A DNA stretch of 64,000 nucleotides from assembly GCA_022840695.1 (NCBI GenBank), contig JALHDC010000002.1, positions 25,753 through 89,752 of the forward strand, read 5' to 3'. Both the position numbers and the translations under genes were made by a program. Below the pieces are notes generated by a model. It was not told the origin of the DNA. It made no database searches and was given only the letters and a program-made list of their open reading frames with translations. The DNA is from a bacterium (GTDB lineage: Bacteria; Patescibacteriota; Dojkabacteria; SC72). Position 1 is the first letter of the stretch, and each line of letters opens with the position of its first letter. Below, in pieces: positions 3,808 through 26,255 of this stretch.

Positions 3808-5025
3808 CTATATTAGCTTACCTTCAAAGGCTTTTTTAAGGATTGATTGACGGAGTGACTTTATAAAAGCTTTTTGCTCTTGAATCCTACGAATTGATTC
3901 GTCAGAGTATGTCTTTAACTTCTCAAGCTTCTTGGAAATCGCTTTTTGACGGCTTATGTCTTGAGGATAAATAAATGGCAGATTCTCTGTTTTTGATTTA
4001 TTTAATATTGGCAGTGTTGTACTAGAACTCTCAGTAGTGATTAATGAGCGTATTTTTCTGAGATAGAAATAAAGATATTTCATATCGAACTTTGGATTAG
4101 GAATAAAAGAATTGATTTGTTGGTTTGTTGTAAGCTCTACTTCTGCAATCCCGACTTTTCCAATCGTTGCACCTATGCAACATAAGAGTACTGTATCTTC
4201 AGGTAATAGTCTTACAACCCCAGTTTCGATTGCATATTTATCAATATATTTATTAGCCTTTGTGATTACGATTTCTGAGTCAGGTAAATCGCTTGGTCCG
4301 ACAAAAGGTATGTCCTGATTTGTATAGTAAAGTTTCTCCTTTGTTTGGGGTGTTTTTCCCGTGTATACTTGGAAAATATCTCCTAGTGATTTAATTTCCC
4401 AGCGATCATCTTCCTCAGGTAAGGTATGAGGGATAAGCCTCTCTAATGCACTATCCATTACCTTGTTTAATTTATCTTCAGCTTGTTTAAGCTTTGCTTC
4501 TGATTTATCTAATAATGTAAAGCATTCTTTTATTTTTGATAAGATTTCAGACTGTGTTTCTAAATCGGGCAAATTTATAGGAATTTCTCTTATGACTTTC
4601 ATCGGTTTTAAATTCTGCATTGCCGTGCCTGAAGTTTGTAGAAGATATCTCTTTTGGACATATTCTGATTCTAAGTAAAGCTTTAAAAACTCTGAGTACA
4701 CTTTTTCACTTGGTCGGATTCTTAGTAATGCTTGGTTTATAATGCCACTTTTTACACCTTTAGGAGCAATTGATAACTTTCCGATGGTTCCTGAACAACT
4801 CATGATTATGTCATTTGGTATTACTTCGAATGCCTTCATCTCTTGAAACTTCTCGCTATTTATATAATAGGAACCAAGTCTGAAATCATCGTAAATAGCA
4901 TTTTTTTGCTCATACACTTTATAACCATCTGGTACGAAAATGCTCTTCTTTAATGCTCCACCAAAAGGGCCTCTCTTTAGGTCTGCTACTTCATTTAGCT
5001 TGATTGTTTTAAAATTCTTTTTCAT
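3808..5025 (-). CDS. hsdS: type I restriction-modification specificity subunit
   Basis: 405 aa, two-TRD architecture with central and C-terminal conserved coiled-coil spacers, located after hsdM/hsdR. Confidence 0.8.
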   Translation of the reverse strand: MKKNFKTIKLNEVADLKRGPFGGALKKSIFVPDGYKVYEQKNAIYDDFRLGSYYINSEKFQEMKAFEVIPNDIIMSCSGTIGKLSIAPKGVKSGIINQALLRIRPSEKVYSEFLKLYLESEYVQKRYLLQTSGTAMQNLKPMKVIREIPINLPDLETQSEILSKIKECFTLLDKSEAKLKQAEDKLNKVMDSALERLIPHTLPEEDDRWEIKSLGDIFQVYTGKTPQTKEKLYYTNQDIPFVGPSDLPDSEIVITKANKYIDKYAIETGVVRLLPEDTVLLCCIGATIGKVGIAEVELTTNQQINSFIPNPKFDMKYLYFYLRKIRSLITTESSSTTLPILNKSKTENLPFIYPQDISRQKAISKKLEKLKTYSDESIRRIQEQKAFIKSLRQSILKKAFEGKLI

Positions 5026-16153: not shown

Positions 16154-16921
16154 CTACGGTCTCAATGTTCCTCCAAATACCTGCCATGCTAACAATGTCT
16201 TAGCTACAAGACTTAATACAATATATGCTTTTTCTCCATATAGATAATCCTTCCACTTCCCAACCTTCTTGTATTGTAAAAACATATTAATTGCAAAACT
16301 ATTAAAGAATAGGAATATACTTACATATATCCAATACACAAAATTAGGGATATCACCTCCACCAACCTCTGTTATGGAATAAACATATATACCAAACACT
16401 ACCCAAGGAACAATACCAGCTATACAACCTAATACAAAGGTTAACCAATTAACCTTCTCCTTCCCAGTATTATGTACCTCCATAGCCAAACCAGTTAAAT
16501 TCATTAATGCATCTAATGCAAAAATCATAACCAAACTAGCTAAATCATATATACCTGTTAAAAAACTAATTGCTAACATCATTACACTTGCACTAAAAGC
16601 ATACTCAAACCATCTAACTCTATTTATACCAACCTTTAGATCCTCCTCATACTTCCTTCTATACACAGTTGATATGAATAGGTGAGCAAAAGCACTCATA
16701 AAGAAGAATGTAGCAACAAACCATGCTATATTAACCTCTGTAATCTGCTCTGTCATAGGAAGAAGCTTCTGTAACTCCAAATCATATTTTAAATAGTTTA
16801 CCGTTATTGGAACAATTCCTTTTTCTGGATCACTAAGAAGAAGGACAACAATACCCTGAACAAGGTGAAAGAGTCCCATTACAAGATTGAAGATTCTTAA
16901 ATTCTTTAATTTCTTCTCCAT
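16154..16921 (-). CDS. heliorhodopsin (retinal-binding 7TM protein with inverted topology)
   Basis: strong similarity along the full length to heliorhodopsin 48C12-type sequences: FHLVQGIVVLLLS, RWFEYAFSASVMMLAI, GCIAGIVPW, SIFLFFNSFA, YIVLSLVAKTLLAWQVFGGT (Schiff-base Lys conserved). Confidence 0.85.
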   Translation of the reverse strand: MEKKLKNLRIFNLVMGLFHLVQGIVVLLLSDPEKGIVPITVNYLKYDLELQKLLPMTEQITEVNIAWFVATFFFMSAFAHLFISTVYRRKYEEDLKVGINRVRWFEYAFSASVMMLAISFLTGIYDLASLVMIFALDALMNLTGLAMEVHNTGKEKVNWLTFVLGCIAGIVPWVVFGIYVYSITEVGGGDIPNFVYWIYVSIFLFFNSFAINMFLQYKKVGKWKDYLYGEKAYIVLSLVAKTLLAWQVFGGTLRP

Positions 16922-17083
16922 ATATACTTAACTAAAATTATATACATACAGTATATGGCATTCTAACTGAAAAACAAAATATCTGGTATAATCAAACTAC
17001 AATGAAAAACATTAGATATACATACATACATCATATATAGCACCTTTGGTGTATATTTTGTCGTATATATATCAAAGGAATAC

Positions 17084-17109
17084 AAAAGAACCAAACGGTT
17101 CTTTTTTTT
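17084..17109 (+). terminator. intrinsic-terminator-like hairpin (9-bp stem AAAAGAACC/GGTTCTTTT, loop AAAC, T8 tail) in the hisS 5' leader
   Basis: seen in sequence between an extended -10 (TGgTATAAT at 16984-16992) and the hisS start; possible attenuator or bidirectional terminator. Confidence 0.4.
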
Positions 17110-17142
17110 GTTAATATGTAATATAACTTAAGATATAGAGAT

Positions 17143-18438
17143 ATGAAAAATAATATAAATACACAACCAATGCCAGGATTCATGGAACTACTACCACAAC
17201 AACAGATGGTATTTAATAATATGATCAAAACCATAAGGGAGGTATATGAGCTATATGGATTTAGACCAATAGAGACACCGTTATTAGAACGATCAGAGGT
17301 CCTTTTGGCAAAAGGAAGTGGAGAAACAGATAAACAAATATATAGATTTAAAAAAGGAGATGCAGATATATCCCTTAGGTTTGACTTAACAGTACCATTA
17401 GCTAGATATGTAGCAAACAATCAAAATGATTTGGTATTTCCATTCAAGATAGGGAACATTGGTAAGGTATACAGAGGAGAAAAACCACAAGCAGGAAGAT
17501 TTAGAGAATTCTATCAATGTGATTTCGATGTAATAGGCAGAGAAGAATTACCAATATCATATGATGCAGAGATAGTAGCAATGATATATCAAATGTTTAC
17601 TAAATTAGGATTAAACAATTTAAAAATTAAAATCAATAACAGGAAAGTATTAAATGGATTCTTTAGAAGTCTAAGTATTTCCAACTCTCAAGATATTCTT
17701 AGAATAATAGATAAGATTGAGAAAATTGGAAAAGGAAAAGTAGAGGAAGAATTAAAAGGTATAGGAGTATCAAAAGATACTGTAGAAAAAATCTTAAATT
17801 TCTTGAATATAAAAGAGGATGTTGTAAAAAAGTTAAAAAATTTAGACATAGAAGATGAAGAGTTCAAAAAAGGAGTAGAAGAATTAGAGTATGTACAAAA
17901 TCAGGTTGAGATATTTGAAATACCAAAAGAAGCATTTGAAATAGATTTAACTATTGCAAGAGGATTAGACTACTATACAGGAACTGTATACGAAACAATC
18001 CTAAACAACTATCCTAATTTTGGTTCAGTATGCTCTGGTGGAAGATATGACAACCTTACATCCTTCTATACTTCTAATAACTATCCAGGAGTAGGGTGTA
18101 GCATAGGCCTTACAAGGCTATTTGATTGTTTACTAAAAAATAATCTTCTTGATATTAAAACAGAAACAGATACCCAACTTCTAGTTATAGGTATGGATGG
18201 ATACGAAAACAATGCTACAAAATTAGGAACTGATTTAAGAAAAGAAAATATCAATACAGAAGTTATGAATAGCCTAAAGAACGGTCTTAAATATGCAAAC
18301 AGATTAAAGATACCTATTGTTGTGATAATAGGGGAACAAGAAGCAAAGAGTAACAGCTTTACTGTAAAAGATATGAATAGTGGTCAACAAAGTACTTTAA
18401 AATATGATGCTTTATTAAAATATCTTAGAGCTAATTAA
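17143..18438 (+). CDS. hisS: histidine--tRNA ligase
   Basis: class II aaRS motifs (GRFREFYQCDFD, GGRYDNL) and C-terminal anticodon-binding domain. Confidence 0.9.
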   Translation: MKNNINTQPMPGFMELLPQQQMVFNNMIKTIREVYELYGFRPIETPLLERSEVLLAKGSGETDKQIYRFKKGDADISLRFDLTVPLARYVANNQNDLVFPFKIGNIGKVYRGEKPQAGRFREFYQCDFDVIGREELPISYDAEIVAMIYQMFTKLGLNNLKIKINNRKVLNGFFRSLSISNSQDILRIIDKIEKIGKGKVEEELKGIGVSKDTVEKILNFLNIKEDVVKKLKNLDIEDEEFKKGVEELEYVQNQVEIFEIPKEAFEIDLTIARGLDYYTGTVYETILNNYPNFGSVCSGGRYDNLTSFYTSNNYPGVGCSIGLTRLFDCLLKNNLLDIKTETDTQLLVIGMDGYENNATKLGTDLRKENINTEVMNSLKNGLKYANRLKIPIVVIIGEQEAKSNSFTVKDMNSGQQSTLKYDALLKYLRAN

Positions 18439-18650
18439 AGGATCTCAACAATCTTCTCTTTACTTCTTAATCCATGTTTAATAGACACATTGCCTTTTGG
18501 TACATTAAAGAATTTTGATAATTGATTGATTACAGAAATATTAGCTCTATTTTCCTTCGCTGGTTCCTTAGTATGAACAATATATAATCCATTTTTCAAA
18601 ACTATATTATTTTCTTTTGAGTTACTCTTAACCCTTATTCTAATAATCAT
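18435..18650 (-). CDS. DUF167 (YggU-like) protein
   Basis: 71 aa, KEPAKENRAN core similar to DUF167 (ApAxxGxAN); convergent 4-nt overlap with hisS. Confidence 0.55.
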   Translation of the reverse strand: MIIRIRVKSNSKENNIVLKNGLYIVHTKEPAKENRANISVINQLSKFFNVPKGNVSIKHGLRSKEKIVEIL

Positions 18651-18684
18651 TTTAAAACAAATTATACATTACTTTAGAAAATAT

Positions 18685-18713
18685 TTGACACAATTTAAAA
18701 CAAATTGTATATT
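18685..18713 (+). promoter_or_regulatory. near-consensus sigma70 promoter TTGACA-17-TGtATATT for the ABC importer/upp operon
   Basis: TTGACA 18685-18690, 17-nt spacer, extended -10 TG at 18706-18707 plus TATATT 18708-18713. Confidence 0.45.
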
Positions 18714-18717
18714 GTAT

Positions 18718-18739
18718 TCTTAGAGTGACTACTCTAAGA
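18718..18739. promoter_or_regulatory. operator-like perfect palindrome TCTTAGAGT-N4-ACTCTAAGA overlapping the predicted transcription start
   Basis: 9-bp inverted repeat with 4-nt spacer immediately downstream of the -10 element. Confidence 0.4.
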
Positions 18740-18760
18740 AAAACAAAAACAACTAGAAAT

Positions 18761-19582
18761 ATGATAATTCAAAAAGACCTGAGCGGTCTTTTTTTTTGGT
18801 TTAAAAAGAGTAATTTAGTAAAAATATTTAAAACAATTCTCTTTTTAACAATATTACTATTAACATGGGAATTAATTATTACGAAGTTTAATATTCCAAA
18901 AAGAATAATACCGAAACCTACAGATCTATTTAATTTTCTACAACAGGAATTCTTAAATTCAAAATCAACAACCGTCCTTACTAAATCCATATTTAGTTTC
19001 AAAGATGCTTTAATTGGATTTTTCCTTTCTCTATTGGTAGGAACAGGGATAGGTATTACACTTTCAAAGAGTAAAACAGTAGATGCAATACTTTTTCCTT
19101 TCCTCTTTTTAACTCAGATAGTACCAGTTCCTGCATTAGCACCTGTACTAGCCGCAATACTTGGATATGGACAAACAACTAAAATATTTTTGATTGTTCT
19201 GTTTACAATATTTCCGATAGCTGTAATTATTAAAAATGCCATTCTTAACATTCCTGAAAATTACACACTACTCCTTCATACCTATACAAGAAAAAGATTT
19301 GCAATATTTAAACATCTAATACTTCCTTCTTTAGTCCCTCCTTTACTCTCTGTCATGAAAATAGTCGCCACATCTAGTATTGTTGCAACAATCATTACAG
19401 AACTACCTCTTTCTGTTAAAAATGGTATTGGAAAAGATATATATAATTCATTTAACAATCAATTAATTCCAAGAGTTTGGGTTAGTGTAATAATCATTTC
19501 AATCATATCGCTTCTCTTTTTCAACTGTATATCATTTTTTGAAAAATATATAACCTCAAAATATAAATATGGTCAATACTAA
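18761..19582 (+). CDS. ABC transporter permease (NitT/TauT family)
   Basis: multi-TM with BPD-transport EAA-like loop; ATG 18761 preferred over GTG 18725, which lies inside the palindrome. Confidence 0.75.
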   Translation: MIIQKDLSGLFFWFKKSNLVKIFKTILFLTILLLTWELIITKFNIPKRIIPKPTDLFNFLQQEFLNSKSTTVLTKSIFSFKDALIGFFLSLLVGTGIGITLSKSKTVDAILFPFLFLTQIVPVPALAPVLAAILGYGQTTKIFLIVLFTIFPIAVIIKNAILNIPENYTLLLHTYTRKRFAIFKHLILPSLVPPLLSVMKIVATSSIVATIITELPLSVKNGIGKDIYNSFNNQLIPRVWVSVIIISIISLLFFNCISFFEKYITSKYKYGQY

Positions 19583-20354
19583 AGCAATAGAAGTGAAGAG
19601 ATTAAGTGCTGATTTCAAAGGAGATGGTAAAGATTTAAATGTTTTAAGTAATATTAATTTTACAATATCCAAAGGATCATTTAATTGCATAATCGGTCCC
19701 TCTGGATGTGGGAAATCAACTCTATTTAGACTTCTAAGTGGATTACCCACAAGAGATTCTTGCAAAATATCAGGAAGTATTAGAGTTTTAGGTAAAAAGC
19801 CAGAAACTGCATCAAGGAATAGGGAGATAGGCTTAGTATTACAGAAACCTACACTTCTAGAGTGGAGAGATGTCCAAAGTAATATTGCACTTCCATTAGA
19901 GATCATGGGATATACAAAAGAGAAACAGGAAGAAAAAATATCTGAACTGTTAAATCTTTTGGATTTAAATGAATATTCTGAATACAGACCTAGTGAACTA
20001 TCTGGAGGTATGCAGCAAAAAGTTTCAATCGGTAGGGCACTTGCATACGATCCAGAACTACTTTTAATGGATGAACCATTTGGAGCATTGGATGAGATTA
20101 ATAGAAGAAGAATGAATAATGAAATTATTAAGATATGGAGGAAAACAAAAAAGACAATTCTTTTCATAACACATAGCATAGATGAAGCAGTATATCTTTC
20201 TCAAAAAGTTATGGTTCTTTCTAAGAAACCATCGACTATTCACAAAACCATCAATATAGATCTTGAATATCCAAGGGAGAAGGAAGAAAACAGTAGTAAA
20301 TATTTTAAATATATAAAAGAGGTAAGAGGATATCTAAATGAAGCAAGTTGTTAA
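19569..20354 (+). CDS. ABC transporter ATP-binding protein (NitT/TauT family)
   Basis: Walker A GPSGCGKST, signature LSGGMQQKV, Walker B LLLMDEPFGALD; start overlaps upstream permease. Confidence 0.85.
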   Translation: MVNTKAIEVKRLSADFKGDGKDLNVLSNINFTISKGSFNCIIGPSGCGKSTLFRLLSGLPTRDSCKISGSIRVLGKKPETASRNREIGLVLQKPTLLEWRDVQSNIALPLEIMGYTKEKQEEKISELLNLLDLNEYSEYRPSELSGGMQQKVSIGRALAYDPELLLMDEPFGALDEINRRRMNNEIIKIWRKTKKTILFITHSIDEAVYLSQKVMVLSKKPSTIHKTINIDLEYPREKEENSSKYFKYIKEVRGYLNEASC

Positions 20355-21099
20355 AAAAGAATATACATATTTAATATCGATAATTACAATTATTGCTTTT
20401 CTGCTTCTTTGGGAAATACTTTTAAATATATTGGACATATCTAGAGCTGTATTAATTAAACCAACGGAGATACTTAAGACAGCGATATCAGAATATGACA
20501 TTATTCTTAGTGAGCTTCTGTATACAGCAAAGGAAATAATACCGGGGTGGATAATAGGAAATAGTTTGGGATTTTTTGTAGCAGTAACTATTTACAGAAG
20601 ACAAAATATATCAACAAAGTTAGTAAATACATTTGTATTAATAAATTCTGTCCCTTTAATAGCTCTCTCAGCTATATTAGGGGGCATTATGGGAACTAAT
20701 ACAGATCAAAAAATATTAATAGTTTCCTTAGTATTATTTTTTCCCATGTTAATTACAGCACTATCTCAATTAACAACTATAGAAGATGACCATAGAGATC
20801 TTCTTCTTACATACTCTGCATCTCAAAAGGATATTTTTAAGAAAATACTCTTACCAAAATCTCTACCGTTCCTACTTAACTGTATAAAGGTTAGTGTAAT
20901 TACTGCAATATTTACAGCAATCACTGCTGAATTTTTCGGAGGATATGGTGGTATAGGGATATTCATACTTTCAAAAAAAGGACTATATAACTTACCTTTA
21001 GTATGGGCAAGCATATTTTACATAGCGATATTTGGAACTATCTTTTATTTTTCTGTTGAGGCTTTGCAAAAAAAGTTAACACCTTGGCAGAGATCATAG
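20338..21099 (+). CDS. ABC transporter permease (second)
   Basis: 6-TM permease, overlapping start with the ATPase gene. Confidence 0.75.
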   Translation: MKQVVKKEYTYLISIITIIAFLLLWEILLNILDISRAVLIKPTEILKTAISEYDIILSELLYTAKEIIPGWIIGNSLGFFVAVTIYRRQNISTKLVNTFVLINSVPLIALSAILGGIMGTNTDQKILIVSLVLFFPMLITALSQLTTIEDDHRDLLLTYSASQKDIFKKILLPKSLPFLLNCIKVSVITAIFTAITAEFFGGYGGIGIFILSKKGLYNLPLVWASIFYIAIFGTIFYFSVEALQKKLTPWQRS

Positions 21100-21136
21100 A
21101 TAGTGACATATATATTTAAATTATTAATTATTTAAT

Positions 21137-22180
21137 ATGGAAGAAAAGAATTCTTCTAATTCACTTCTAATTGGAGTGATACTTCTTCTGCTTGTGGCAG
21201 CTGGAGTATATTTTCTCTTTCTGAAAGATTCTCCTGAGAATGAGGAAGAGGGTAAGGATACAGTTACTTTGCAACTTAAATGGATTGAGCAAGCTCAGTT
21301 CATGGGCTTTTTAGTTGCTAGAGAGCTTGGATACTACGAGGATGAAGGTATAGATATTGAGATACTACCAGGAGGAGTTGGTATTAATCCAATAGATGTC
21401 CTAATTGCTGGAGATGCAGATGTAGCTGTAGCATGGACGGGTAATGTACTACCAGCAATATCCCAAGGTGAAGAGTTAGTAAATATTGGACAAGGATTAC
21501 AAAGATCTGCAATGAGATTAATGGCATTAAAAGAAAGTGGTATAGAAAACCCAGAGGATATAGAAGGAAAAAAGATTGGAACATGGCCAGGTGGTAATGA
21601 ATTAGAGCCATATGCATTCATAGAGATGCAAGGATTGGATAAAGATAGAGATGTTACATTGGTAAGTCAGAATTTTGATATGAACCAATTACTAAATGGT
21701 GAAATAGATCTTGCCTCTGCAATGATTTATAACGAATATTGGCTACCAATAGAGCAAGGATATAATGAAGATGATTTCACAGTATTTGATATGGAAGAAG
21801 AGGGTGCAGGCATGCTACAGGATGCTTTATTTGTTAAAAAAGATTTCTTAGATAACAATGAAGATCTTTTAGTAAGATTCCTTAGAGCAAGTATAAAAGG
21901 ATGGGAGTATGCTATAGCAAATCCCGAAGAAGCTGTAGATTTAATGAAATTAGATTTTACTGCTAATGATGTAACTGCAAAAGATCATCAAATTAGAATG
22001 GCACAAGAAACAGCAAAACTATATCAATCTGATGATGGAGCTAGTAAAGGTCTTTTCTACATAAATGAAGAAAAGCTTCAACAAACTGTAGATATTGCTA
22101 CAGAGTATATTGAGGAAGTAAAGAATATAGATATTTCCAAGATATATACTTTGAGTATATGGGAGAAAGCTATACAGTAA
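21137..22180 (+). CDS. ABC transporter substrate-binding protein, NMT1/THI5-like (pyrimidine/sulfonate-type)
   Basis: N-terminal TM anchor, LQLKWIEQAQFMGF...GYYEDEGIDIEI characteristic of NMT1/THI5-like periplasmic binding proteins. Confidence 0.7.
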   Translation: MEEKNSSNSLLIGVILLLLVAAGVYFLFLKDSPENEEEGKDTVTLQLKWIEQAQFMGFLVARELGYYEDEGIDIEILPGGVGINPIDVLIAGDADVAVAWTGNVLPAISQGEELVNIGQGLQRSAMRLMALKESGIENPEDIEGKKIGTWPGGNELEPYAFIEMQGLDKDRDVTLVSQNFDMNQLLNGEIDLASAMIYNEYWLPIEQGYNEDDFTVFDMEEEGAGMLQDALFVKKDFLDNNEDLLVRFLRASIKGWEYAIANPEEAVDLMKLDFTANDVTAKDHQIRMAQETAKLYQSDDGASKGLFYINEEKLQQTVDIATEYIEEVKNIDISKIYTLSIWEKAIQ

Positions 22181-22824
22181 TGAAAAACCTTACTCTTCTT
22201 ACAAATCCAGTTATACAAAGCATTGGATTGAAACTTCATGATAAGGATAACAATCCTCATGAATATAGGGAGTATGCCAGATTATTAGGTCTATACATGG
22301 GTATAGACCTTTCTGGTAGAAGTATACTACCTACAAAAAAAGTTATTTGTAAAACACCACTTGGCTCACTCACATCAGAGGTTATAGATGACAATAAAAT
22401 AGGAATAGTGAATGTATTAAGAGCTGGGACTGGTATGGCATTGGGAGTAGGGGAAGCATTTCCTGAAAGCTGTATTGCCTTTATATCTGCATGGAGAAGA
22501 CAGGAAAACAATACTATTATTGCAGACACGGATTACAATAGAGGGATAGAGGATTTAGATAAAAAAATTGTAATTATAACAGATCCTGCCTTGGCATCTG
22601 GTTCTTCCATACTAGCCTGTATCGATGTAATACATAAGAAAGTAAAACCTAAGAAAATAATAATATGCTGTTTACATGCTGCAACTGAGGGTATAAAAAA
22701 TATAAGAAAGGAGTATCCTGATATTAATATATACTCTGTATTTGGACCTAGTGATTTAAACGAAAAATTCTATATCGTAAATGGTCCTGGAGATTGTGGA
22801 GATAGAAGCTTTAATACAAAGTAG
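22180..22824 (+). CDS. upp: uracil phosphoribosyltransferase
   Basis: PRPP-binding signature VLRAGTGMALGV and ITDPALASGSS; start ATG overlaps SBP stop (TAATG). Confidence 0.85.
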   Translation: MKNLTLLTNPVIQSIGLKLHDKDNNPHEYREYARLLGLYMGIDLSGRSILPTKKVICKTPLGSLTSEVIDDNKIGIVNVLRAGTGMALGVGEAFPESCIAFISAWRRQENNTIIADTDYNRGIEDLDKKIVIITDPALASGSSILACIDVIHKKVKPKKIIICCLHAATEGIKNIRKEYPDINIYSVFGPSDLNEKFYIVNGPGDCGDRSFNTK

Positions 22825-22848
22825 AAATTAAATTAATATTTATACTAT

Positions 22849-23316
22849 ATGAAAGTGCTAGTAAGTGCATGTCTGTTGGGCATTAATAGTAGATATGATG
22901 GTAAAAACAAATTTAATAAAGATCTTCTTTCTTTTTTAATTAATAACAACATAGATTTTTTTCCTCTTTGTGCAGAGCAACTAGGAGGCTTAACAACTCC
23001 AAGAGAACCATCTGAGATAGAGTATGGTTTTACAGCTCAAGATGTTATTGAGGGTAGAGGAAGAGTATTAACAAAAAGTGGAAAAAATGTTACTAAGAAT
23101 TATATCGATGGAGCAAATGAGGTATTAAAATTTTGCAAATCTATAAATATTACTCATGCTATATTAGCTGAAAAAAGCCCGTCTTGTGGATATACAAAAA
23201 CATATGATGGAACATTTAGTGGGATATTAATAGATGGTAATGGAATACTTACTCAATTACTCAAAAACAATGGAATTGCGATTGTAAAAGATATGCAAGA
23301 TTTAAACAAAAGTTAA
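22849..23316 (+). CDS. DUF523 protein, TudS-like (thiouracil desulfidase family, [4Fe-4S])
   Basis: MKVLVSACLLG N-terminus; three Cys positioned as in TudS cluster ligands (SACLLG, FPLCAEQLGG, SPSCGY). Confidence 0.6.
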   Translation: MKVLVSACLLGINSRYDGKNKFNKDLLSFLINNNIDFFPLCAEQLGGLTTPREPSEIEYGFTAQDVIEGRGRVLTKSGKNVTKNYIDGANEVLKFCKSINITHAILAEKSPSCGYTKTYDGTFSGILIDGNGILTQLLKNNGIAIVKDMQDLNKS

Positions 23317-24483
23317 AGCAAAACCTTTCTTACCTGCTCTTCCTGTTCTTCCAATACGATGGATATAATCCTCGTATGATTGAGGCATATCGTAATTAAT
23401 AACATGAGAGATATTATTTACATCTAAACCTCTAGATGCTACATCTGTTGCTATCAACACATCTATGCTTCCTTTCTTGAACCTATCAATTATTCTACTT
23501 CTCTGGCTCTGTTTCTTATTTCCATGTAAAGCTTCTACATATATTTTACATTCCTCCAATTTTTTACATAGATTGTCTGCACCTCTTTTTGTTGCTGTAA
23601 AGACCAATACTTTCTTTACTTCTTCTTTTCCTAATAAATTCTTTAAAACATCAAATTTGTTTTGATCTCTTTCTAATCTAATTACATCCTGATCTACATT
23701 CCTTCCTGGTTCCTGTCTCTCTATTTCAATTCTAATTGGATTATGTAATAAGGTGTTGGCTATTTGCTCTGATTTGTTATTCATAGTGGCTGAGAAGAAT
23801 AGGGACTGTCTTTCTTTCTTAAGACCATCTATTATGAATTTAATATCGTTAATAAATCCCATATCTAACATCCTATCCACTTCATCTAGAATGACATTAT
23901 TTATTGTAGAAAGATTAATTTCTCTTCTTTCTGTTAAATCTTTTAATCTCCCAGGAGTACAAATGATGAATTCTGGATTCCTTCTTAATATACTAATTTG
24001 AGTTCTCATACTGTTTCCACCCATTATTAATACACTATTAATACCTGTGTTTCTTGAAAGTTGTCTAAATTCATCCTGTATTTGCATAGCCAATTCCCTA
24101 GTGGGGACAACTATTAGACATCTACTGTTTCTATCCTTAACAATTTTATTTATCATTGGAATTAAAAATGCTGCAGTTTTACCTGATCCAGTAGTAGCAA
24201 TGCCTAGGATATCTCTTCCACTTAATATCTCAGGTATAGCCTTATACTGTATTTTTGTAGGATGACTATAGCCTTTTTCGTATGCATTTCTTTTTAATAT
24301 CTTAGTGATATCAAATTGAGAATATTCAAAATCATCTACAAACATATTCATAGGCTCACTATCTACAGCCTTAGCTACCAATTTGTCTACCGAGATAGCA
24401 TTTGGCTTATATCGAGATCTTCTTGAATTGTTATTATATCTATTATGGCGATATCCTCCATTACTTCTGTGATAATTTCTCAC
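23302..24483 (-). CDS. DEAD-box ATP-dependent RNA helicase with N-terminal R/N/Y-rich extension
   Basis: Q-motif, TGSGKT, PTRELA, DEVD, SAT, HRIGRTGRAG; 393 aa; ends unusually soon after motif VI. Confidence 0.85.
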   Translation of the reverse strand: MRNYHRSNGGYRHNRYNNNSRRSRYKPNAISVDKLVAKAVDSEPMNMFVDDFEYSQFDITKILKRNAYEKGYSHPTKIQYKAIPEILSGRDILGIATTGSGKTAAFLIPMINKIVKDRNSRCLIVVPTRELAMQIQDEFRQLSRNTGINSVLIMGGNSMRTQISILRRNPEFIICTPGRLKDLTERREINLSTINNVILDEVDRMLDMGFINDIKFIIDGLKKERQSLFFSATMNNKSEQIANTLLHNPIRIEIERQEPGRNVDQDVIRLERDQNKFDVLKNLLGKEEVKKVLVFTATKRGADNLCKKLEECKIYVEALHGNKKQSQRSRIIDRFKKGSIDVLIATDVASRGLDVNNISHVINYDMPQSYEDYIHRIGRTGRAGKKGFALTFV

Positions 24484-25085: not shown

Positions 25086-25628
25086 TTAACCAAATACCTT
25101 TTTAATTAATACCTTCTGTCTTTTAAATAGTGGGTGCTTTTTATCCGTATTAGCTATTATACTTTCATATACATTTCTGTGATACCATTCCTGATCTTCT
25201 CTTCCTCTTTTGAACTTACTCCATACCTCTTCTCCTTCTCTTTGTAAATCAATATATATTGATTCTAGATTATTTATCTTATCTGCACATTCGACTAACT
25301 TTACTTCTATACCTGCATCTTTAACATGATCTATTGTTTCCTGTTTTCTAACTTTCCAAGGCAAACTCTTATCTGATTCAGATACACCATCTACAATATT
25401 AGCTATTTTTTTACCAAATCTTTTCTCAATATCTTCCTTGGTATATGGGGTATCTTCTATAACATCATGTAATAGTCCAGATATAATAATATCATCACAA
25501 CATCCAGCTCTCTGTAATATCATTCCTACTGTAAATGGGTGAAATATCATTGCAACATCTTCCATCTTCCTATTTTGTCCATTGTGTGCCTTAGTTGCAA
25601 AATATATTGCTTTCTCTACCTTATCCAT
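25086..25628 (-). CDS. HD-domain (p)ppGpp hydrolase-like small alarmone hydrolase (Mesh1/RelA-SpoT HD type)
   Basis: AHNGQNRKMEDV...IFHPFTV...LLHDVIEDT motifs matching the RelA/SpoT hydrolase HD domain; 180 aa, no synthetase domain. Confidence 0.7.
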   Translation of the reverse strand: MDKVEKAIYFATKAHNGQNRKMEDVAMIFHPFTVGMILQRAGCCDDIIISGLLHDVIEDTPYTKEDIEKRFGKKIANIVDGVSESDKSLPWKVRKQETIDHVKDAGIEVKLVECADKINNLESIYIDLQREGEEVWSKFKRGREDQEWYHRNVYESIIANTDKKHPLFKRQKVLIKKVFG

Positions 25629-25730: not shown

Positions 25731-26255
25731 ATGTTTCTTTCGAATAAAACAATTAGTAAATATATCCAAAAAGGAAAGATTATTGTAAAAGGAAAACTCC
25801 ATATTGAAACAAAGGGCATTACAATGAATTTAGGAAATGAATTATTAATACCCAAACCAAATCAAACTGTAGACACAGAAAGTCCAAAGGAGATTAGGTA
25901 TGAAAAATATGATTTAGAGAAAGAACCATATATACTCAAACCTAATGATTTTGTATTAGGATCTACATTGCAAAATATTAAAACAGGCAAGAATATAATT
26001 ACTATGATAGATGGAAGATCTACATTTGCTAGAGTAGGGATGACTGTACATATCACAGCTTTTGTATTGGATGGGATACCTTTTAACAATGAAAATTCTG
26101 TATTAGAAATAAAGAATCTAGGAAATTGTAATATTGTATTACATAAAGGTGAGCAGATTGGTACATATCTGTTTGCAAAACTAAGTGAAAAGATAGTAGG
26201 GGGAAAAGAAAGTAAGTACGAGGGACAGAATGGTGTAGTTGGAGTAAAGCTTTAA
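25731..26255 (+). CDS. dcd: dCTP deaminase
   Basis: DGRSTFARVGMTVHITA core and C-terminal KYEGQNG resemble Dcd. Confidence 0.75.
   Translation: MFLSNKTISKYIQKGKIIVKGKLHIETKGITMNLGNELLIPKPNQTVDTESPKEIRYEKYDLEKEPYILKPNDFVLGSTLQNIKTGKNIITMIDGRSTFARVGMTVHITAFVLDGIPFNNENSVLEIKNLGNCNIVLHKGEQIGTYLFAKLSEKIVGGKESKYEGQNGVVGVKL

Follow-up and report, generated by a model that had tools for sequence, protein, structure and literature searches.

In the pyrBI and rph-pyrE attenuators of Escherichia coli, transcription and translation are coupled in a UTP-sensitive manner: a promoter-proximal intrinsic terminator lies before the pyrimidine genes, and a leader reading frame ends a few nucleotides before that terminator or crosses it. 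The stand-alone desulfidase TudS prefers 4-thio-UMP about 2000-fold over 4-thiouracil (PMC10611767), and in vivo 4-thiouracil is activated by Upp, which is needed for its incorporation, and is detoxified by TudS (PMC12210855). The Pyd enzymes of reductive pyrimidine degradation have been described (PMC7332683), and the NMT1-motif (xanthine/urate) riboswitch operons set a precedent for "NMT1/THI5-like" genes that belong to nucleobase rather than thiamine metabolism (PMC7373994). Here a tiny-genome CPR bacterium, probably a member of the Dojkabacteria, links a probable uracil importer, Upp and TudS in one operon, and comparison with related loci supports a predicted role in uracil/thiouracil salvage. 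The six genes probably serve to scavenge pyrimidine bases by import, Upp and TudS, most likely under attenuation.

The operon lies on the forward strand of a 64-kb stretch of DNA (called the window below) and comprises six co-directional genes. ABC permease 1 (PF00528, E = 5e-20; best NCBIfam matches to NitT/TauT-type permeases) ends at 19582 and starts either at ATG 18761 or at GTG 18725, back to which the ORF stays open. The Lys/Arg-rich open leader frame could simply be the cytoplasmic N-terminal tail of this permease. The ABC ATPase follows at 19569..20354 (PF00005, E = 5.5e-30; best NCBIfam matches to SaoA, TauB and nitrate-type ATPases), ABC permease 2 at 20338..21099 (PF00528, E = 2.6e-19), and a membrane-anchored substrate-binding protein of the NMT1/THI5 fold at 21137..22180 (PF09084, E = 4e-45). 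The last two genes encode the uracil phosphoribosyltransferase Upp, at 22180..22824 (PF14681, E = 3e-39; 152 bits to NF001097, cut-off 114), and TudS (DUF523), a stand-alone [4Fe-4S] thio-pyrimidine desulfidase, at 22849..23316 (PF04463, E = 1.8e-39). Since the gene junctions overlap or are 24-37 nt apart, they fit a single transcription unit. An earlier note on this DNA had already given this gene order, at 18685-23316, together with the promoter and the palindrome described below, and all were seen again in the sequence, the ORFs and the Pfam and NCBIfam searches. That the upp ATG overlaps the binding-protein stop as TAATG was likewise evident in the sequence; the gap from the upp stop to tudS is 24 nt, not the 25 nt reported before.

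More than 12 related CPR contigs (L003, L004, L005, L083-L086, L088-L090, L093, L099, L101) share the order permease-ATPase-permease-binding protein-upp-tudS, and more distant CPR loci (L007, L008, L097, L107-L109) keep the ABC genes and Upp. Bacillota have orthologous binding proteins 38-49% identical to that of the window, and an alignment of 66 sequences shows 36 invariant columns. PreA, PreT or dihydropyrimidinase occurs within 8 kb in 57 of 74 Bacillota transporter loci, and some Pyd-type gene does so in 68 of the 74. In five Bacillota loci (L010, L013, L015, L018, L082) tudS comes directly past the binding-protein gene. The two TudS homologs looked up outside the operon clades (L103/L104, L105/L106) are beside neither upp nor the transporter, and for that reason TudS might act in the turnover of the cell's own tRNA and not on thiouracil brought in from outside.

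Upp aligns full-length to solved Upps, including the DPxxAxGxS and GxGDxGDR motifs. The TudS of the window matches TudS 6Z92 with E = 1.5e-19, and its Cys8/Cys41/Cys113, Glu43, Ser110/Ser112 and Arg15-Tyr16 agree with published ligand and catalytic residues (PMC10611767). Judged by gene neighborhoods, the most likely cargo of the NitT/TauT-type importer (two different permeases, one ATPase and an anchored binding protein) is uracil, together with the 4-thio analog that occurs in nature. Upp, by its family membership, would turn the imported bases into UMP and 4-thio-UMP, and TudS, which has the requisite residues, would strip sulfur from 4-thio-UMP to give UMP, a step that would recover the nucleotide and keep thiolated uridine out of RNA. 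Pyrimidine uptake and salvage, as first proposed, is thus supported by neighborhoods centered on the binding protein (upp, tudS, reductive pyrimidine catabolism), but the proposed sequence of TudS and then Upp has to be reversed. The published TudS kinetics and the activation by Upp make import, Upp, TudS the likely order, that is, 4-thiouracil to 4-thio-UMP to UMP (PMC10611767, PMC12210855).

Upstream of the genes, a sigma-70-type promoter at 18685..18713 (TTGACA at 18685-18690, a 17-nt spacer, TATATT at 18708-18713) scores 11/12, the best site in 18300-23700, where 29 promoter-like sites are found against a shuffle expectation of 28.7. This is the near-consensus promoter described before; its TG sits right against the hexamer, and for that reason the promoter scan gives it no credit as an extended -10. 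A feature absent from the earlier note follows the palindrome and precedes the main part of permease 1: an intrinsic-terminator-like hairpin at 18771..18797, AAAAAGACC-TGAGC-GGTCTTTTT, running into 9 T. It is crossed by a leader reading frame (18725..18797, from GTG 18725 or ATG 18761) that is in frame with permease 1. We compared 20 leaders, which fall into about 8 types unrelated in sequence, and tabulated 12 leaders of one group (group A). Each of the 20 has, at the equivalent place, TTGAC[AT] followed after 16-18 nt by a -10 of the TAnnnT type, and the terminator sits at the same place in 20 of 20, although its stem varies by lineage (AGACC/GGTCT, GGAGCC/GGCTCC, GAGCT/AGCTC, CCCCGC/GCGGGG, GAAGCC/GGCTTC, AGAGCCC/GGGCTCT). 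The group-A stem is kept at the nucleotide level across two reading frames and a non-coding context. An ATG or GTG stands 11-12 nt past the -10 in 12/12 tabulated group-A leaders, and in all 20 leaders an ORF at least 10 codons long either crosses the terminator stem or stops 12 nt or less upstream of it, whereas 2000 shuffles give a mean of 6.8/20 and never more than 14 (a comparison that ignores kinship, with about 8 independent leader types). The window leader folds as two hairpins (-22 kcal/mol, z = -4.7), and RNAalifold returns the same two.

The combination of promoter, short ORF reaching the terminator, and terminator in 20/20 leaders points to ribosome-coupled attenuation, which is the most likely control of the operon as read from these leaders. 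RNA polymerase leaving the strong sigma-70-type promoter would run into the intrinsic terminator after about 55-85 nt. The start codon that stands 11 nt past the -10 would open a short frame, fused in the window to permease 1 across the terminator, and a ribosome close behind the polymerase would cover the terminator's 5' arm, permitting read-through; without coupling, transcription would stop there. Such coupling could, speculatively and by analogy with pyrBI and pyrE of E. coli, report UTP supply.

The earlier note had called the operon repressor-controlled, and the palindrome it described is real: a perfect 9-4-9 repeat, TCTTAGAGT-GACT-ACTCTAAGA, at 18718..18739, whose loop holds GTG 18725. 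Perfect hairpins with 9-nt arms are not rare in the window (11 against about 4.7 in shuffles, at 31% GC), so what makes this one significant is that related loci keep it in the same place. It could be either a DNA operator or a stem-loop at the 5' end of the transcript. As an operator it might be bound by a dimeric repressor, with its gene elsewhere, that would block the promoter when pyrimidines are plentiful, the T-run hairpin being non-regulatory; we regard this as possible but doubtful, and a repressor could in any case coexist with attenuation. The palindrome begins 4 nt past the -10 and covers the expected start site, and a start at the usual 7th-10th nt past the -10 would give an RNA in which the 5' arm is partly or wholly missing (a start at A/G 18722-18723 would leave that arm untranscribed and make an RNA hairpin impossible). 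The outer hexamers TCTTAG/CTAAGA are kept at a fixed N10 in most group-A leaders while the inner bases drift and are often unpaired, and in the L004/L090/L091 clade both half-sites change together, to TTTCAG/CTGAA[AT]. Yet L003 has an N7 spacer and L100 an N11, and in the clade that has the palindrome its loop always carries an ATG or GTG; this codon is asymmetric and shares the frame of the ORF that follows, a feature for which an operator gives no reason. Out to about 10 kb from the operon there is no regulator gene, in keeping with the earlier remark that no cognate repressor gene is obvious in the window, and neither the 64-kb window nor some 166 kb of related loci holds a second copy of the motif or another operator-like site. 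Among the compared leaders the palindrome is limited to group A; other leader types lack it and still have promoter, upstream ORF and terminator. With the anatomy of an attenuator common to all the leaders, the 22-bp palindrome over the start site would add a further layer in one clade, whether as an operator or as a 5' RNA hairpin displaying the start codon, and repression is one possibility only.

Alternatives for the importer turn on its binding protein, whose predicted ligand is uracil or 4-thiouracil, a specificity assigned by guilt by association through orthologs roughly 45% identical. Its AlphaFold model (pLDDT 91.6, N-terminal helix at residues 9-30) finds as closest solved structures the thiamin-bound 4NMY and the FAMP-binding ThiY 3IX1 (TM about 0.7-0.8), and the UniRef/NCBI names of some homologs mention thiamine pyrimidine synthase, as would suit a ThiXYZ-like importer of HMP, formylaminopyrimidine or thiamine with upp and tudS as mere neighbors. 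We consider this thiamine-related role, the counter-case named in the earlier note, highly improbable: identity to both structures is only 21%, LQLKWxxQAQF, invariant in the subfamily of the window protein, stands where ThiY has LDWYPNAVH, scans of 18 loci and of the window gave no TPP riboswitch, the neighbors are Upp, TudS and Pyd enzymes with no thi genes, and the window operon has two permease genes. It is also unlikely that the importer carries a different pyrimidine-derived compound such as thymine, dihydrouracil, uridine, a pseudouridine-derived base or cytosine, with TudS only recycling breakdown products of the cell's own s4U-tRNA. Thymine or dihydropyrimidines would suit the Bacillota Pyd clusters equally well, TudS has been seen as recycling 4-thio-UMP from tRNA turnover (PMC10611767), and several CPR versions of the operon dispense with TudS and have a PCC-domain gene in its place. 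But Upp, which uses the free base uracil, is the one partner kept in all CPR versions, and two phyla have tudS as the gene immediately following that of the binding protein.

Set beside the pyrBI and rph-pyrE attenuators, leaders of the window type share a frame that reaches the terminator, so that a close-following ribosome would prevent the hairpin in both. They differ in that the window has no U-rich pause region upstream of the terminator (the sequence there is A-rich, which lends no direct backing to UTP sensing), in that the leader ORF opens very close to the transcript's 5' end with no Shine-Dalgarno, and in that many loci, the window included, have this ORF joined to the first structural gene as a fusion. 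PyrR attenuation of Bacillus pyr, pyrP and upp likewise places a 5' stem-loop and then a terminator before pyrimidine transport or salvage genes, but in the window there is no nearby pyrR gene, no evident antiterminator pairing, and no match to Rfam families, PyrR included, when 18400-19000 is searched with E as high as 10. The NMT1-motif operons, by contrast, serve purine oxidation in Proteobacteria under a riboswitch, and no such RNA was found in the window or the loci scanned (PMC7373994).

ThiXYZ/ThiY (Bacillus halodurans, 3IX1) and 4NMY resemble the importer in NitT/TauT type, NMT1/THI5-fold binding protein and pyrimidine-ring class of ligand; the window system departs from them in its 21% identity, other pocket-motif residues and lack of a TPP riboswitch, and from ThiXYZ in its two permease genes and in neighbors (window and relatives) that are Upp, TudS and Pyd rather than thi. 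The Pyd-cluster transporters of Bacillota (Paenibacillus, Clostridium, Cohnella and others) have an orthologous binding protein, ATPase and two permeases, sometimes with TudS directly after; they are not mentioned in PMC7332683, and literature searches gave no characterization of them. Their clusters degrade the base (PreA/PreT, dihydropyrimidinase, carbamoylase, aminotransferase, with PucR regulators) and run ATPase-permease-permease-binding protein, whereas the window would salvage the base via Upp and runs permease-ATPase-permease-binding protein. The TudS proteins of Aeromonas, Pseudomonas and Clostridioides difficile share with that of the window PF04463, three Cys ligands, the Glu/Ser residues, Arg-Tyr contacts to phosphate and base, and a form free of DUF1722 fusion. 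In C. difficile and S. aureus the logic is the same, Upp activating 4-thiouracil and TudS detoxifying it (PMC12210855); what distinguishes the window is the predicted co-transcription of tudS with upp and the importer.

The operon at about 18685-23316 on the forward strand comprises six ORFs, all reading in the same direction downstream of a promoter and palindrome, and Pfam and NCBIfam bear out all six gene families named in the earlier note. Permease 1 (18725 or 18761 to 19582, +; PF00528, E = 5e-20), an ATPase (19569-20354, +; PF00005, E = 5.5e-30), permease 2 (20338-21099, +; PF00528, E = 3e-19) and a substrate-binding protein (21137-22180, +; PF09084, E = 4e-45) are followed by the uracil phosphoribosyltransferase Upp (22180-22824, +), whose ATG does overlap the binding-protein stop as TAATG, and, after a gap of 24 nt, by the DUF523 protein TudS (22849-23316, +). 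The first four products have every attribute of a NitT/TauT-type importer (BPD_transp_1 permeases, a TauB/SsuB/NrtD-type ATPase and a binding protein of the SsuA/TauA/NMT1 fold). The top NCBIfam matches are SaoP, NtrB, SsuC and TauC for the permeases, and SaoA and the taurine and nitrate ATPases for the ATPase, every one of these last under its equivalog cut-off. At the far end, the stop region of tudS (23302-23316) overlaps by 15 nt the 3' end of a convergent DEAD-box helicase gene (23302-24483, -), and there is no terminator between the two. Also close to the operon are genes for a heliorhodopsin (16154-16921, -; PF18761 on the identical contig L001), an HD_4 small alarmone hydrolase-like protein (25086-25628, -) and a dCTP deaminase (25731-26255, +); a glmS ribozyme (Rfam RF00234, 47 bits) lies at 214-351, upstream of a 595-aa ORF at 379-2166.

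Both enzymes can be matched to characterized proteins at the level of functional residues. Upp scores 135 bits to PF14681 (cut-off 27) and 152 bits to NF001097 (cut-off 114), and only 148.9 to TIGR01091, under the cut-off of 208, and is therefore a divergent member of the UPRTase family. It aligns over its full length to solved Upp structures, including the PRPP loop (ITDPALASGSS, against DPMVATGYS in the solved Upp 3DMP) and the C-terminal uracil-binding motif (YIVNGPGDCGDRSFNTK, against YIVPGLGDAGDRLFGTK). TudS, a single domain of 155 aa with no DUF1722 fusion, scores 135 bits to PF04463 against a cut-off of 34.7. In alignment to the crystallized TudS 6Z92, C8, C41 and C113 match the cluster ligands Cys10/43/104, E43, S110 and S112 match the catalytic Glu45 and Ser101/103, and R15-Y16 match Arg17-Tyr18, which contact phosphate and base. 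The gene is a stand-alone TudS, a predicted [4Fe-4S] desulfidase of 4-thio-UMP or 4-thiouracil. The earlier note placed TudS ahead of Upp, an order that published work reverses. The kcat/Km of TudS for 4-thio-UMP is >2000-fold above that for 4-thiouracil (PMC10611767), and in S. aureus the incorporation of 4-thiouracil into RNA needs Upp and is prevented by TudS (PMC12210855), so that the sensible order of steps would be import, then Upp, then TudS. With this correction to its enzyme order, the uptake-and-salvage reading of the operon is supported by the comparative evidence.

Structure leaves the ligand of the importer unfixed. The model of the binding protein (pLDDT 91.6, with an N-terminal membrane helix) resembles ThiY, THI5, SsuA and TauA; its closest solved relatives, the thiamin-bound protein 4NMY and the formylaminopyrimidine-binding ThiY (3IX1), share just 21% identity with it, and LDWYPNAVH of ThiY aligns to LQLKWIEQAQF within the same fold. 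Rfam gathering scans find no TPP riboswitch in the window or in 18 related loci, and the leader, the stretch from promoter to permease 1, has none in an E-value scan; nor does the operon show a riboswitch of any kind, a PyrR site or a T-box by gathering and E-value scans. No thiamine biosynthesis or salvage genes lie beside the transporter, whose neighbors are instead Upp and TudS in CPR bacteria and enzymes of reductive pyrimidine degradation (Pyd) in Bacillota. The SEED/RAST label "pyrimidine ABC transporter" is used for transporters of pyrimidine-utilization clusters, which may or may not mean this family. Work on xanthine riboswitches indicates that "NMT1/THI5-like" annotations may conceal nucleobase functions (PMC7373994).

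Because structure does not fix the ligand, gene neighborhoods were used to predict it. Scanning one genome per species with the binding-protein alignment yields 80 loci, and a metagenome scan adds a set of 18. (L-numbers below denote homologous loci, on CPR or Bacillota contigs, found with the window's binding protein or TudS.) Relatives labelled Candidatus Dojkabacteria or other CPR bacteria carry binding proteins 57-82% identical to the window's. The complete order of permease, ATPase, permease, binding protein, upp and tudS recurs in CPR loci L003-L005 from the first scan, and the metagenome scan and contig look-ups extend it to L083-L086, L088-L090, L093, L099 and L101. In CPR versions further removed, the transporter and Upp are retained, and a gene for a PCC-domain protein (PF03479, function unknown) stands in place of TudS. 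This gene adjoins upp, directly after the transporter genes (L006, 9037-9450; L007, 9107-9520; L107, 6289-6690; L108, 6330-6746; L109, 5580-5990), a recurrent link between the PF03479 domain and uracil salvage in CPR operons without tudS.

The remaining 74 of the 80 loci are from Bacillota (one is labelled Spirochaetales), with binding proteins 38-49% identical to the window's; 36 columns are invariant over 66 aligned sequences. By Pfam and NCBIfam, the transporter's neighbors there are the PreA and PreT subunits of dihydropyrimidine dehydrogenase, dihydropyrimidinase, PucR regulators, a carbamoyl-amino-acid amidohydrolase or CN-hydrolase, a class III aminotransferase, and a (methyl)malonate-semialdehyde dehydrogenase or Fe-alcohol dehydrogenase, a gene set that matches the reductive pyrimidine degradation pathway (PMC7332683). 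PreA, PreT or dihydropyrimidinase is encoded within 8 kb of the transporter in 57 of the 74 loci, and some gene of the pathway is near it in 68. A TudS gene (PF04463) lies immediately 3' of the binding-protein gene in five of these Bacillota loci. Uracil is the one substrate common to Upp, TudS and the Pyd pathway, and 4-thiouracil is its thiolated analogue; by association with three independent partners in two phyla, we infer that the transporter carries uracil and/or 4-thiouracil. The linkage of DUF523 homologues to upp or ABC genes, to which the earlier note looked for confirmation, is found in the CPR and Bacillota clades and is missing from two TudS homologues outside them, and is thus clade-specific rather than a general property of DUF523. 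In one Bacillota locus (L048, Paenibacillus sp. WLX2291) a purine riboswitch (4077-4176, -) occurs on the strand opposite to the orthologous transporter, about 1 kb upstream of it, where it presumably controls a divergent gene.

The control region begins with a near-consensus promoter, as the earlier note had read it: TTGACA (18685-18690), a 17-nt spacer and TATATT (18708-18713). With a scan score of 11/12 it is the top site in 18300-23700, a region whose total count of promoter-like sites equals chance; the TG next to the -10 hexamer does not stand at the extended -10 position. Four bases further on lies the perfect 9-4-9 palindrome TCTTAGAGT-GACT-ACTCTAAGA (18718-18739), present as described. 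Between it and the body of permease 1 there is a second hairpin, AAAAAGACC-TGAGC-GGTCTTTTT running into nine T (18771-18797), which scores as an intrinsic terminator. The leader RNA folds into two hairpins at -22 kcal/mol (z = -4.7). All 20 leaders compared have the same plan: TTGAC[AT], a 16-18 nt spacer and a -10 element, a leader of 50-105 nt, and a terminator with 7-10 T that either immediately precedes permease 1 or falls within its 5' end. The stems of these terminators vary from lineage to lineage, with six or more sequences that bear no relation to one another, so it is the structure itself that is conserved. In group A, the clade of leaders to which the window's belongs, the stem AAAGACC/GGTCTTT is conserved at the nucleotide level. 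Translation of it gives KDLxGLFF in three loci and KRPxxSFFL in six, and three leave it untranslated or only partly translated; selection on this stem acts at the nucleic acid, not the peptide.

Every one of the 20 leaders, which fall into about eight types of unrelated sequence, also has an ORF of at least 10 codons, initiated by ATG or GTG, that stops near the terminator stem or reads through it, often in frame with the permease. Measured from the stem, the stops fall from -11 to +8, except in L096, where the stop is at +43, past the terminator, and shares an ATGA with the start codon of the permease. The expectation from dinucleotide shuffles is that an ORF would reach the terminator in a mean of 6.8 leaders (maximum 14), against the 20 of 20 observed; a stricter test that admits the first start codon only gives 14 of 17 against 6.9 expected, relatedness among leaders being ignored in both. 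In L085, L087, L100 and L096 the ORF encodes a separate short peptide ending at the terminator. In the window it is fused in frame to permease 1, so that the element occurs in two forms, as a short leader ORF (uORF) in those relatives and as an N-terminal extension here. No in-frame ATG, GTG or TTG occurs in the window between the terminator and the permease's conserved Trp-Glu, so permease 1 must be translated across the terminator. L006 and L097 have in addition a start-stop ORF (ATG TAA or ATG TGA) 7 nt after the -10, at the expected transcription start and upstream of a longer uORF, MTNFQR... We regard the paired terminator and uORF as the core that is conserved in the control region.

Perfect hairpins with 9-nt arms number 11 in this 31% GC window against about 4.7 in shuffled sequence, so the palindrome is unremarkable alone, and it gains weight because related loci keep it at the equivalent place. 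There, the outer hexamers TCTTAG/CTAAGA recur in most group A loci with an N10 spacer, one clade has both arms changed to TTTCAG/CTGAA[AT], and position 7-16 covaries between A-T and G-C. All of this fits a DNA operator or an RNA stem alike, and the leaders compared hold no G-U-only changes of the kind that separate the two (the 18 loci of the metagenome scan restrict covariation analysis). A classical operator would explain why the palindrome overlaps the start site and why its half-sites are kept at fixed spacing in most group A loci; moreover, a start at the usual 7th-10th base after the -10 would leave part or all of the 5' arm out of the RNA, which favors a DNA role. However, the loop always holds an ATG or GTG, 11-12 nt after the -10 and in frame with the downstream ORF, an asymmetric feature for which an operator does not account. 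The spacing is N7 in L003 and N11 in L100, and the palindrome is confined to group A (12 distinct leaders and one near-duplicate, L090, of L004) and missing from the other leader types. Nor is a regulator gene found within about 10 kb of the operon, in keeping with the earlier note, or any second copy of the motif beyond chance-level near-matches in the window and about 166 kb of related loci. We judge the classical operator rather unlikely; the label "repressor-controlled" given to the operon is not established, and a conserved putative attenuator had been missed.

A second promoter-uORF-terminator leader occurs in the window at 16984-17145, upstream of the histidyl-tRNA synthetase gene hisS (17143-18438). 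It has TGgTATAAT, a short ORF MKNIRYTYIHHI* that has two His codons in a row close to its end, and a hairpin AAAAGAACC-AAAC-GGTTCTTTTTTTT (17084-17111) followed by the hisS ATG. Rfam detects no T-box in this leader, which looks like a His-codon leader-peptide attenuator.

The NitT/TauT ABC importer, Upp, TudS and attenuation are each of known kinds. The literature searched yields no characterized uracil ABC importer of this type, no prediction of uracil or thiouracil specificity for this NMT1/THI5 subfamily, no importer-upp-tudS operon and no uORF-terminator leader of this sort. The joint proposal, that the binding-protein family marks an uncharacterized class of uracil/4-thiouracil ABC importer and that the CPR leader is a new kind of pyrimidine-responsive attenuator, is put forward tentatively and is quite unlikely to hold in both its parts. 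If it did, one importer class would be common to pyrimidine-degrading Bacillota and nucleotide-scavenging CPR bacteria, and a near-leaderless short ORF, its start codon in a 5' hairpin, would need to be translated up to or through a terminator for the operon to be transcribed. CPR bacteria (Patescibacteria) have very small genomes, and the prevailing view is that they depend on metabolites from other cells; an importer devoted to uracil and wired to Upp would identify one such supply route. Scavenged RNA bases would include 4-thiouracil from tRNA, from which Upp would make a toxic nucleotide, hence a rationale for TudS in the operon as a built-in "proof-reader" for thiolated bases arriving through scavenging. 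The transporter family is present in most Bacillota reductive pyrimidine-degradation clusters and is now annotated as generic NitT/TauT or as a "thiamine pyrimidine" protein, so identifying the ligand of one member would re-annotate hundreds of genes. The leader, for its part, would give an accessible example of attenuation in a phylum where gene regulation is almost unknown.

Several other modes of control known from pyrimidine genes do not fit the leader. Rfam gives no match to a PyrR-binding attenuator in 18400-19000, even with E relaxed to 10. A codBA- or pyrG-like mechanism, by reiterative transcription or start-site switching, would need a T- or G-run at the start site, and none is consistent across the loci. 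Antiterminator pairing between the 5' hairpin and the terminator comes down, by inspection and folding, to 4-bp complementarities that are not kept in the TTTCAG clade. The geometry of leader ORF plus terminator is that of ribosome-coupled attenuation at pyrBI and rph-pyrE of E. coli. A ribosome halted a few nt from the stem, or one that reads on through it, would mask the terminator's 5' arm, and a UTP-dependent race between polymerase and ribosome could then set read-through, an attractive arrangement for a pyrimidine operon. This UTP-dependent coupling step is speculative, since the leaders are A-rich, their sole U-rich stretch is the terminator tail, and a U-rich pause region of the pyrBI/pyrE type ahead of the terminator is absent. 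In its layout the window's operon is like the pyrBI and pyrE attenuators in two respects: an intrinsic terminator separates the promoter from the first structural gene, and a leader ORF ends at or crosses that terminator, as in all 20 leaders.
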